64,000 nucleotides of DNA. It comes from Thermoanaerobaculia bacterium (lineage in GTDB: Bacteria > Acidobacteriota > Thermoanaerobaculia > UBA5066). Location of the stretch: assembly GCA_963816185.1 (NCBI GenBank), contig CAWFJJ010000025.1, positions 384,001 through 448,000 of the forward strand. Direction: 5' to 3'. Each line of letters starts with the position of its first letter. The first letter of the stretch is position 1. Made by a program: the position numbers and the translations under genes. The notes under the pieces were generated by a model. It searched no databases. It was not told the origin of the DNA and saw only the letters and a program-made list of their open reading frames with translations. Below, piece by piece: positions 8,186 through 11,113 of the stretch.

Positions 8186-8572
8186 TCATTGGCCCTGAGG
8201 CGGCTGCCATAGCTCGACCTTGTTTCCCTCTAGATCAATGACCCAGGCAAACTTCCCATACTCGGATTCGTCAATCTTCTCGAGCACTTTGCAGCCTTCT
8301 TCCTTCAAGACCTTGACCAAGGCGTGGAGGTCTTCCACTCGGTAGTTGACCATGAAGGGAGCAGGGCTCGGAGCAAAGTGATCACTTTCTTCCGGATCGA
8401 TGAGCCAGGCAGTTGTACCCGCAACTGGTTTGCCCTCGGCGTCGGTCCAAGTGAAGGCAGCGCCGCCCCAGCCTTGGACATCGATTCCCAAGTGCCGCTT
8501 GTACCAGGCCTGCAGTGATGGAGCGTCTTTGGCCTTAAAGAAGATGCCGCCGATGCCAGTGACTCGTGTCAT
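8186..8572 (-). CDS. VOC/glyoxalase family protein (cassette gene)
   Basis: RVTGIGGIFFKAKD, MVNYRVEDL, YGKFAWVIDLEGNKVELWQP. Confidence 0.9.
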   Translation of the reverse strand: MTRVTGIGGIFFKAKDAPSLQAWYKRHLGIDVQGWGGAAFTWTDAEGKPVAGTTAWLIDPEESDHFAPSPAPFMVNYRVEDLHALVKVLKEEGCKVLEKIDESEYGKFAWVIDLEGNKVELWQPPQGQ

Positions 8573-8618
8573 GTGACCTCCGGTGCGCGGTGGTGGTAAA
8601 AAGAATGTGCCTTCTGCG

Positions 8619-8697
8619 GTTTAACGATTCAAGCTCAGCGGCGAGGAAAAAGGAGCGCAGCGTCTGACGACGAGCCCATTGAAGCGCGTTGTTAGGT
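8619..8697 (-). other. attC recombination site (79 bp)
   Basis: Minus strand ACCTAAC-AACGC-GCTTCAATGG...CCGCTGAGC-TTGAATC-GTTAAAC, giving R''/L''/L'/R' with an extra base in L''. Confidence 0.8.
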
Positions 8698-8726
8698 GGC
8701 GACCGGGGTAAATGTTGGGCCTGAGC

Positions 8727-9071
8727 TCACTGGTGCCTGACGATATCGACTGAGATCTCCACCGCCCGCGTCGTTCCTCTATTCTCAAGCCAATGCGTGG
8801 TGTTCTTATCCTCGGGCCAGCCCACTCCCGGCCCATACTCCTTAGCCACTTCTTTCCGATGGTCAGTGATCGTTCCTTGCAGTATGTAGACCATGCCCGG
8901 CCTGTCTTTATGTTCGTGAATCGGGCCGAAGACGCCTCCAGGTTCGATGGTCACCATGCGCATTCGAAGTTGGCGCCCTGCCATGCCCTCGATTTCGGGG
9001 CCAAGGTCAAGCGCTGCTAGTAGCTTCACCGTAACACCTTTCGTCTCAGGTGCCACCTGCTCGTTTCGAAT
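8727..9071 (-). CDS. Cupin domain protein (cassette gene)
   Basis: TIEPGG..HEHKDRPG..YILQGTI..HWLEN; AAAGGAG SD lies 6 nt before an in-frame ATT at 9071 (alternative GTG at 9056). Confidence 0.8.
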   Translation of the reverse strand: MRNEQVAPETKGVTVKLLAALDLGPEIEGMAGRQLRMRMVTIEPGGVFGPIHEHKDRPGMVYILQGTITDHRKEVAKEYGPGVGWPEDKNTTHWLENRGTTRAVEISVDIVRHQ

Positions 9072-9230
9072 CGTCGTCTCCTTTCTGTACGTTCTGGTCG
9101 CCTAACGATATCGTTTCAATGAAGACGAGAAAAGGGCTGTCCTCGCCGACGTGGTCACCGAAGAATCGGGCCACACAGTTTAACGGGGTCAACCTCCGAG
9201 GAGGTGCCCCAAGCAAGGGAGGACAGCCCG

Positions 9231-10334
9231 ATGAAATCTTATGTGGGACTGGACGTTCACAGCAAGTCGAGCGTTTTCATGATTCAGAACGAGCGGGGAG
9301 AGGAGCTGGGACGAGGCGAGGTGCCGACCTCTGTGGAAGGGTTTTCCTCGTTGCGGCTACGTTTCAAGCTTCGCGCCTCGACGCTGGTGGCTCTCGAATC
9401 GGGGACGATGGCGTTTTTTGCGGCGCGAAAGCTCAGTGAGCTGGGGCTTTCACCTGTCGTGGTGGATGCGCGAGAGGTCAGGATCAAAGCCCATCGGCCC
9501 CGGCAGAAAAGCGACACGAGAGACGCCGTTGAACTGTGCGAAGGCCTGCGGCGTGGAATCTACCGGTCGATCGTGCATGTGCCGCCGGAGAAGATCGAGC
9601 ACCTTAGAAATACCCTCTCGAGGCGCCGCCATTTCGTGCGTCTCGGGACGGCGCAGATCAACGCGGCGAAAAAGATGCTCCGGAGCGCGGGGCTCTCCGA
9701 GCTCAGCCGCCAGCATCTCGGGACCCTTCGCGCGTGGCAGCGCCTTCTTGGGGCCCTGGTTCCACATCCGCAGGTAAGGAGCTACGTCGAGCTTCACCAC
9801 CGCGCCTGGCAGACTGCCCTCGAGCAGAAGAACGCGTGCGAGAAGAGCCTCGAAAGCCAGCACGCCGCCTTCGGCGAAGACCTCGAGAGACTCAAAACCG
9901 TTCCAGGAGTCGGGGAGATCGTGGCGCTGACGGCAATCGCTGTCTTCTCAGACGCCACGCGCTTTCCGACCGCCAAGCATGCGGCGAGCTACGCGGGGCT
10001 CGTCCCGCAAACCTACCAGTCGGGCGAAACGAACCGCCAGGGCCACATCACCAGGACGGGTTCGCCGGAGCTGCGGGCCATGCTCGTGCAGGCGGCTCAC
10101 ACGGCCAGGCGGCAAAGCAGCCCACTGAATCCGTTTCTGAGAACTCTCACGTTGCGCCTGGGGACACGCCGGGCTGTCACCGCCGTGGCGCATCGTCTTT
10201 GCCGGGTTCTTTACGCGATGCTTCGAGACAAGACGAGCTTTGATCGATCGATGCTGAAAGCCCACGAGCCGCGCACGGCGGTAAAGGATGCCCGGATCTA
10301 TCGACTGAAACCTCAAGCGGCAAAGAGCCGCTGA
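9231..10334 (+). CDS. IS110 family transposase/recombinase
   Basis: VGLDVH, VALESG, KSDTRDA (DEDD); TVPGVG, AASYAGLVP..YQSGE; AVAHRL. Confidence 0.95.
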   Translation: MKSYVGLDVHSKSSVFMIQNERGEELGRGEVPTSVEGFSSLRLRFKLRASTLVALESGTMAFFAARKLSELGLSPVVVDAREVRIKAHRPRQKSDTRDAVELCEGLRRGIYRSIVHVPPEKIEHLRNTLSRRRHFVRLGTAQINAAKKMLRSAGLSELSRQHLGTLRAWQRLLGALVPHPQVRSYVELHHRAWQTALEQKNACEKSLESQHAAFGEDLERLKTVPGVGEIVALTAIAVFSDATRFPTAKHAASYAGLVPQTYQSGETNRQGHITRTGSPELRAMLVQAAHTARRQSSPLNPFLRTLTLRLGTRRAVTAVAHRLCRVLYAMLRDKTSFDRSMLKAHEPRTAVKDARIYRLKPQAAKSR

Positions 10335-10377
10335 AGACGAAGAAAGGAAAAGCACGCCGCAAATCTTGCCGAGAATC

Positions 10378-10530
10378 GGGTGGATGACCCTGCTGCTGAG
10401 CATTGGGCCTCAGAGCCCGGGATATCGTTTGGGGCGCCATCCGCTGAAGTGATACGTGGGGCTCTGACCCCGAATGGACGAGTGGCCGGCTGTTTCGTGC
10501 GGCGCAAGCAAGACATTATTCAGCGAGGGG
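10378..10530 (+). ncRNA. Putative bridge/seek RNA of the IS1111 element
   Basis: Stem CAGAGCCC 10411-10418 / GGGCTCTG 10459-10466 encloses GATATCGTTT (identical to the left flank 9107-9116), a TGG-GGCG-CCA hairpin and CCGCTGAA (antisense to the right flank); boundaries approximate. Confidence 0.7.
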
Positions 10531-10564
10531 CTTGACAGGAATCTTCATGGGCAAGCTCAGCGGC

Positions 10565-11113
<549 letters not shown>

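Follow-up and report, generated by a model that had tools for sequence, protein, structure and literature searches.

Does the insertion sequence (IS) that interrupts an integron attC site in the Thermoanaerobaculia bacterium assembly GCA_963816185.1 carry its own RNA guide to that site, and if so, which of its letters would do the guiding? We addressed this question in a 64,000-nt stretch of contig CAWFJJ010000025.1 (positions 384,001 to 448,000; G000:C25:384001-448000), referred to below as the window, from an assembly of 5.09 Mb in 30 contigs whose close relatives are Thermoanaerobaculia or Acidobacteriota metagenome-assembled genomes. The IS, at ~9112-10553 of the window, is a single-gene element of 1.44 kb and of IS110/IS1111 type. 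A preliminary description of the window had proposed that its 3′ non-coding end holds a bridge RNA or seekRNA whose target guide can be read directly against attC. We consider it very probable that the element is an IS1111-type member of the IS110 RNA-guided recombinases with a guide RNA aimed at attC, but with an anatomy revised in most of its parts.

The evidence carrying this reading is the agreement between two short segments of the non-coding DNA downstream of the transposase gene and the flanks of the insertions themselves, which we followed through 17 distinct insertions in 8 lineages. The first segment, situated 5′ of a conserved hairpin (hairpin 1) and here named the right target guide (RTG), reads in reverse complement as the right junction, starting at the second core base. 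Four different 5-mers occur at this junction, each matched by the RTG of its own element: the agreement is 5/5 in eight insertions, 4/5 in another eight (six of them own-genome copies) and 3/5 in one, and with G.U pairs allowed the RTG is pairable at 11-12 of its 12 positions. When the guides were permuted among the lineages, the observed score was reached in 13 of 20000 shuffles, a count that overstates independence inasmuch as the lineages are kin. In a further genome (L113), the RTG matches at 5/5.

The second segment, 3′ of hairpin 1, is the left target guide (LTG), which is complete (7/7) in each of the 15 events whose left flank is known (L020 being read in register) and likewise in L113 and L048, and reaches 6/7 in L049. 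That 10421-10430 is identical to 9107-9116 had been recognised in the preliminary description, which placed the left guide correctly; 10421-10427 corresponds to the left target plus CG, and the remaining letters (10428-10430) to the start of the IS. This extension agrees with the IS start at 3/3 in 12 events and in L052, and at 2/3 in L021, L024, L050, L113 and L115. At a T/C position of the left target, the LTG and both occupied sites of genome G004 have C, with T in 9/9 empty sites, and in G003 a T-type LTG is found in T-type occupied sites, with 10/15 empty sites being C-type. Pairing of the LTG with the top strand by way of the GATATC palindrome was also considered, and is ruled out by a lineage that reads GATACC. 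In the putative RNA, the match to the top strand comes first, 5′ of that to the bottom strand, which is the order of IS1111 elements. Taken together, the 3′ non-coding end appears to encode a scaffold resembling bridge RNAs and seekRNAs, whose two guides covary with the two strands of the attC target.

The same scaffold is kept in three divergent lineages, L050 (57% amino acid identity), L052 (52%) and L115 (57%), in which the guide letters differ and match the elements' own, different flanks. In L050, 8 nt of the right flank find their complement in the segment before hairpin 1, and 8 nt of the left flank recur in the segment after it. The LTG of L052 equals 9 nt of its left flank and the RTG matches the right flank at 8/11, while in L115 (G464:C559), which uses another CG, halfway along an attC of the same family, the LTG matches at 6/6 and the RTG at five contiguous bases, followed by a one-base slip. 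Two incomplete copies without the RNA (L096 in G157, and L097) and a degenerate RNA-like remnant (L117) were left out of these comparisons. A search of loci at the 30%-identity level with model R1 found no further RNA, returning 6 matches in 20 sources, of which four strong ones all fall in known loci and the others are weak (L046, E 0.013; L097, E 0.28).

Could these matches arise without any RNA guide, either because the IS has captured a piece of attC or because a protein reads the folded attC as IntI does, so that the resemblances are incidental? The RNA is a prediction from DNA sequence, attC sites are structured and their recognition by proteins is known, and the palindromic nature of GATATC makes some of the matches cheap. 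However, two opposite-sense segments split by a conserved hairpin follow their own target halves through four 5-mers and the T/C variant, the same scaffold in L050 matches a palindrome that is not an attC site, and the family is RNA-guided by experiment. We regard an explanation without a guide as extremely improbable.

The exact anatomy of the element depends on its boundaries, which were set by comparing occupied with empty attC sites. The left flank is conserved at all copies, and the sequence beyond it, further left, differs; the alternative that this flank is part of the IS was ruled out, as empty sites carry the same letters. On the right side, 10553-10557 reads AAGCT, GAGTT, GCGCT or GCGTT in different copies, varying even between copies of one genome (G003), and the same 5-mers are seen in empty sites. 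Because the 5-mer varies exactly as it does in empty attC sites, we assign it to the target and not to the IS. The left junction has CG throughout and the right junction has CG, or CA in AAGCT-type sites; L020-L025, L050, L052 and L115 have CG in corresponding positions at the two junctions, and the left flank, a single CG or CA, and the right flank together make up real empty attC sites. Rejoining the flanks at CG gives a perfect 16-bp palindrome in L050 and the attC consensus with one CG in L115. The 17 insertions occupy the same attC position, with C or CG common to both junctions and no long target duplication. As judged from these sequences, the crossover would therefore lie at C/CG, that is, at 9112-9113 on the left and 10552-10553 on the right, which is 4-5 nt further left than the TT and CT cores, with IS ends at 9117 and 10557, that had been assigned before. 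The 16-mer spelled by the earlier assignment as the empty target has no match in the own genome, and the 4-nt spacing that it predicts between GATAYC and CAGCGG occurs in 0/49 empty sites of five relatives, where the spacing is 5 nt in 48 and 6 nt in one. At L020 (1386, left junction), we observed the target 5-mer on both sides, forming an 8-nt direct repeat.

The scaffold was examined in an alignment of 13 sequences (A1), which is consistent with a four-helix structure made up of P1, hairpin 1, P2 and hairpin 2. These helices are paired in 97.1% of cells, compared with at most 61% when partners are slid, and three pairs have changed on both sides. In hairpin 1, a compensatory replacement of G-C by A-U is found in 4/13 sequences (GGGC/GCCC to GAGC/GCTC, compensated inside the hairpin), and the hairpin is also found in L050, L052 and L115. 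The stem of hairpin 2 is invariant in 13/13 sequences, while its loop is freely variable. RNAalifold independently returns P1 and both hairpins, and places P2 in a different register (10436-10438/10488-10490 with 10441-10444/10482-10485).

These helices bear directly on the anatomy drawn in the preliminary description, in which a loop closed by an 8-bp stem (10411-10418/10459-10466) contains the guides 10421-10430 and 10441-10448, with TT/CT cores and IS ends at 9117/10557. All the letters of that proposal are present; the stem is perfectly complementary and contained in the minimum-energy single-sequence fold, and its inner 4 bp pair in 13/13 sequences. However, the inner pairs are halves of hairpins 1 and 2, the outer 4 bp are paired in 50% of cells with zero compensatory changes, and the G-to-A change in hairpin 1 is compensated within hairpin 1 and not within the 8-bp stem. 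The proposed right strand, 10441-10448, is complementary to the flank here over an exact 7-nt run, its TT part failing where the flank reads CT, and over exactly 8 nt in relatives whose 5-mer ends in TT. Yet it is largely retained in L052, CCGCUG included, despite the unrelated right flank of that element. Thus, the covariation with flanks across homologues that had been expected of both loop strands holds for the left strand and fails for the right, the covarying right guide being 10392-10403; 10441-10448 probably belongs to the scaffold or to the donor loop, as its 5′ portion. The proposal also puts the bottom-strand guide 5′, as in IS621 and not as in IS1111 elements, and the covarying guides here have the opposite order. 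With the spelled target missing from six genomes and 10553-10557 varying like a target, this anatomy is largely refuted and very unlikely to be right. The donor guides that went with it (10401-10407 and 10502-10510) and the outer stem around them are neither conserved nor covarying in the alignment as read by eye. Separately, we noticed an 18-nt, 83% complementary pair (10401-10418/10459-10476) that includes the 8-bp stem; its pairing competes with hairpins 1 and 2 and could represent an alternative, inactive fold in this copy.

Considering the layout around hairpin 2, we infer from the sequences a second, donor loop at this place. A match to the core and left end of the IS stands beside hairpin 2 at the homologous place in three lineages (7, 7 and 8/10), as does a match to the right end and core (6, 6 and 7/10), and in all three, at most one other place in the entire non-coding region matches better than the donor strands. 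In L050 and L052, 10476 changes along with a G/A difference at the right end of the IS, and in L115 the other strand changes along with an A/T difference at the left end. In the region 10481-10483, AG switches to CG in step with the attC 5-mer and the RTG, and the corresponding bases, CU in L052 and GC in L050, follow those coded by the RTG there, with 3/3 agreement in L052 and L115. By analogy with the handshake guides of IS621, of which they are the mirror image, 10428-10430 and 10481-10483 may play a handshake role.

Alternatively, the RNA might be a single-loop seekRNA, in which module 1 (the target loop around hairpin 1) is the sole guide, 10436-10490 is a protein-binding scaffold and the IS ends are recognised by way of the target flanks of the donor copy, as in ISEc11. 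According to PMC11187229, an 82-nt seekRNA is enough for transposition and retargeting needed changed donor flanks; moreover, the donor-strand matches here amount to only 6-8/10, and the IS ends hardly vary, which makes covariation a poor test of donor pairing. What speaks for the two-loop arrangement instead is that the strands beside hairpin 2 take first or second place among the matches to the IS ends in three lineages, that they co-change with those ends, and that the letters 3′ of 10480 keep pace with the right target (AG, CG, CU, GC) together with the RTG, a behaviour unlike that of a pure scaffold. We consider the single-loop form unlikely.

In the two-module arrangement that we favour, the 217-nt region downstream of the gene would encode a guide RNA of ~100 nt (~10388-10490), whose production and stems are predicted from sequence conservation. 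Module 1, the target loop, would be closed by the stem 10388-10391/10431-10434 and contain, in order, the RTG, hairpin 1 and the LTG, followed by 10428-10430 matching the IS start. Module 2, the donor loop, would have the same layout around hairpin 2, with 10449-10456 followed by 10473-10480 and then by 10481-10483. The element would be excised as a circle whose ends join at CG, uniting the -35 hexamer (10532-10537) with a -10-like box (9115-9120). In such a circle, TTGACA stands 17 nt from the -10-like hexamer, and the resulting junction promoter, a function that we propose by analogy with the family papers, would drive both the transposase gene and the RNA; a scan for promoters gave no likely site that would serve the RNA itself. 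The recombinase-RNA complex would then pair its loops with attC and with the circle junction, and strand exchange would take place at C/CG.

Several observations weigh against this arrangement. As to the boundaries, AAGCT-type sites share only C, and not CG, between their junctions; the ends were derived from paralogous empty sites elsewhere and not from the empty form of this very locus; the left junction of L020 has five target-like bases where others have four IS bases; and the left end of L038 is one T shorter. As to the guides, all 6 own-genome copies have one mismatch in the guide 5-mer, the guide of L047 matches at only 3/5, L049 combines a C-type left guide with a T-type site, and the RTGs of L052 and L115 fit their single known site only in part. 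The donor guides match imperfectly and face IS ends that vary little, as noted above. P1 and P2 are only 3-4 bp long, with two competing registers for P2, single-sequence folds are no better than those of shuffled sequences (z -0.40 and z -1.27), and an Rfam scan of 8800-10900 with E up to 10 returned four chance-level matches only. A search of sequencing runs matched soil-metagenome DNA runs, with only small shares of the sequence in RNA runs. Because the folds are not unusual compared with shuffles, the functional case rests on the covariation with the flanks.

Table 1. Features of the IS, its putative guide RNA and its attC target. Positions are those of the window.
Feature	Position	Strand	Remarks
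Neighbouring unoccupied attC-like site	8606..8700	+	same small array
Left target	9100..9111	+	attC R-box (CCTAAC) and 5 nt to the crossover; same letters in empty attC sites
Left-junction core CG	9112..9113	+	one copy IS-owned; from occupied/empty comparison
IS body	9114..10551	+	~1440 bp counting one core copy; ends set by occupied versus empty attC sites
Left subterminal inverted repeat	9119..9125	+	7 bp; perfect complement of 10542-10548
DEDD transposase (bridge recombinase)	9231..10334	+	367 aa; PF01548, PF02371, NF033542
P1, 5′ strand	10388..10391	+	pairs with 10431-10434, closing the target loop; 100% of cells paired, one compensatory pair
RTG	10392..10403	+	5′ of hairpin 1; reverse complement tracks the right junction
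Hairpin 1	10405..10418	+	4 bp, 5-6 nt loop; stem 10405-10408/10415-10418, between the target guides
LTG	10421..10427	+	same letters as left target and core (9107-9113); pairs with the bottom strand
Handshake-like LTG extension	10428..10430	+	identical to the IS-body start (9114-9116)
P1, 3′ strand	10431..10434	+	pairs with 10388-10391
P2	10436-10439 with 10483-10486	+	
Right strand of the preliminary description	10441..10448	+	complementary to the flank here; in RNAalifold, 10441-10444 forms a stem with 10482-10485
Proposed right donor guide	10449..10456	+	complementary to the core and first bases of the IS left end
Hairpin 2	10458..10471	+	GGGG/CCCC stem (10458-10461/10468-10471), loop 6-12 nt
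Proposed left donor guide	10473..10480	+	same letters as the end of the IS body and core
Handshake-like donor-loop bases	10481..10483	+	identical to the start of the right target
-35 hexamer TTGACA of the putative junction promoter	10532..10537	+	same hexamer in L050 and L052
Right subterminal inverted repeat	10542..10548	+	perfect complement of 9119-9125
Right-junction core position	10552..10553	+	target-derived; CA here, CG in most relatives
Right target, inside attC	10554..10564	+	

The assignment of the element to the IS110/IS1111 type agrees with the earlier one, as does the presence of target-matching guide segments in the 3′ non-coding region. The translation contains the N-terminal DEDD/RuvC-like domain (PF01548, DEDD_Tnp_IS110; E 8e-14) and the C-terminal domain (PF02371, Transposase_20; E 6e-24) that together characterise this family, and scores 226 bits against a cut-off of 140 with the NCBIfam model NF033542, 'IS110 family RNA-guided transposase'. 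Its C-terminal domain aligns to the IS621 and ISCro4 transposase chains, SG motif included, and the conserved G..P....SG motif is found in the translation; the assignment of the catalytic serine of this motif is that of PMC11208158. The non-coding DNA extends over 217 nt downstream of the transposase gene, compared with 117 nt upstream, which is an IS1111-like layout, and the 7-bp subterminal inverted repeats lie at the bottom of the 7-17 bp range of the IS1111 subgroup. The own genome holds 6 full IS copies (99-100% identity), one 450-bp piece and smaller fragments, and all of the full copies share one attC-type flank. It also contains, at C24:732657-732831 (L004, L008), a derivative of ~175 bp that has kept both ends of the IS and lost the gene and the RNA, and whose right flank differs from the usual attC half. 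Within the IS studied here, an 11-bp perfect inverted repeat (9134-9144/9219-9229) connects the left end with the ribosome-binding site and start region of the transposase gene; its arms seem, by eye, to be complementary with other letters in L050 and L052, and the repeat could serve in translational control.

The target that all IS copies occupy is a single repeat type, an imperfect palindrome of ~60 bp with an RYYYAAC box at its start and GTTRRRY at its end. Unoccupied repeats number 11 in the own genome, as counted with one strict pattern, and 49 in five relatives, and the arrays have a cassette-like spacing of 326-1233 nt. The integron integrase model TIGR02249 matches above its cut-off, at >460 bits, in 3/5 relatives, and the other two have a broken intI. 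The gene adjoins the IS-bearing arrays in G001 and G003, the third intI above the cut-off being that of G002. Because RYYYAAC...GTTRRRY repeats form cassette-spaced arrays with an adjoining intI, we identify the target as an integron attC site, which bears out what had been read from the window at the outset. In G001:C2:421662-428297 and G003:C5:4423-12605 (L103, L104), the 3′ end of intI faces the IS-bearing array, a layout like that described as 'inverted intI'. No intI above the TIGR02249 cut-off was found in the own assembly, and the small array of the window is a cluster without a detected integrase.

This array is a cassette-like succession on the minus strand (8186-11113), consisting of an open reading frame (ORF; 8186-8572), the attC-like site at ~8606-8700, a cupin gene (8727-9056), the attC that the IS interrupts and a RibD_C gene (10565-11113) with its stop at a distance of 1 nt (10564) from what is left of attC. 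In 15/18 intervals between attC sites, the longest ORF runs opposite to the strand of the IS; this is a weak test in GC-rich DNA, and its result agrees with the minus-strand genes supported by Pfam. The IS thus appears to run antisense to the cassettes, its insertion point being 5 nt from the R-box and near the 3′ end of attC.

Elements of this kind are already known. For ISKpn4, ISPst6 and ISPa25, seekRNAs that had been purified or predicted were matched to an attC target in 2024 (Siddiquee et al., PMC11187229), and in the same report IS1111-type seekRNAs are placed downstream of tnp, with their match to the top strand preceding that to the bottom strand. As attC-targeting seekRNAs have been on record since then, the present element introduces no new principle, and the earlier suggestion of a new natural RNA-guided pair holds in the sense of a new, distant member of a kind known since 2024. 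As those three are described, the element here resembles them in its DEDD transposase, its long downstream non-coding region, the order of the guides and the targeting of one attC end. Its host differs, being an acidobacterium with a chromosomal integron, and its RNA was set beside theirs by their descriptions only. Table 1 of PMC13604230 gives the ISKpn4, ISPst6 and ISPa25 insertion point as adjoining a CG 6 nt from the R-box, compared with a CG at 5 nt here; relative to the R-box half-site as given in that review, our IS points the opposite way from the ISKpn4 group and would thus address the other attC end. It does not show the shared attC position and orientation (near the 5′ end, antisense) that define the IS1111-attC group, although the subgroup of ISPa21, ISPst6 and relatives is, according to PMC3001079, antisense to the cassettes, as apparently here. 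In comparison with plasmid-borne IS110-family genes, identity is at most ~33%, ISKpn4 itself being unidentified among the matches; that the best plasmid-borne relatives are ~32-33% identical argues against close kinship to the IS1111-attC group. The transposase has 367 aa, compared with the 330-350 aa quoted for IS1111 transposases.

In comparison with the IS621 bridge RNA, as presented in PMC11208160 and PMC11208158, the predicted RNA would share two loops and one guide per DNA strand, with the guides meeting at a short core. Likewise shared, though putative here, are extra handshake bases matching the partner DNA after exchange (PMC11208158 for IS621) and a promoter formed at the circle junction, as reported for IS621; the C-terminal domain of the transposase aligns as well, SG motif included. 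Unlike in IS621, the putative RNA lies 3′ and not 5′ of the gene, the guide order in each predicted loop is reversed, giving a mirror-image layout, and the likely core is CG (or only C) and not CT. The RTG is long, at 12-13 nt with G.U pairs, the inner hairpins have only 4 bp, and the handshake-like bases of the predicted layout stand on the bottom-strand guides. With the IS1111 seekRNA elements ISEc11 and ISPa11, whose downstream RNA is reported to have a short form of 82-96 nt and a long form of 150-170 nt, the present element shares subterminal inverted repeats and a predicted downstream RNA. ISEc11 and ISXne4 are described as a case of natural retargeting through exchange of guide letters, and the same is seen between the relatives studied here. 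In contrast to ISEc11 and ISPa11, which have other targets, retargeting in these relatives is fine-scale, between single attC 5-mer variants, and also between two CGs of one attC (L115). A similar fold may already be included in Supplementary Figs 6-7 of PMC11187229 or Extended Data Fig. 10 of PMC11208160; none of the papers listed in our literature search for a prior description used the word Acidobacteriota. Thus, the system is of a known kind, and what is new is a distant member with an unusually readable natural series of guides and targets.

RNA-guided IS110/IS1111 recombinases are under development as programmable DNA-insertion tools, and natural guides that can be read against many real insertion sites help to learn their rules. 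The lineage described here offers at least 17 insertions into four variants of the target; its core is likely to be CG, its right guide is long, and its handshake-like bases change in concert. With it, the range of RNA-guided IS that target attC comes to include soil Acidobacteriota whose integrons are chromosomal. Beyond this, it is conceivable, if somewhat less probable than the contrary, that these elements form a separate acidobacterial clade of bridge recombinases that co-diversifies with the attC micro-variants of the host integrons, the RTG, LTG and donor-loop handshake changing together with the 5-mer and the sister L115 having moved to a second, mid-attC CG. Were this so, the insertions would provide a natural specificity table for a bridge system with a mirror-image layout and a CG core, including its tolerance of G.U pairs, a core overlap of one base and handshakes of 2-3 nt, and the elements would partition the integron arrays of their hosts by RNA code.

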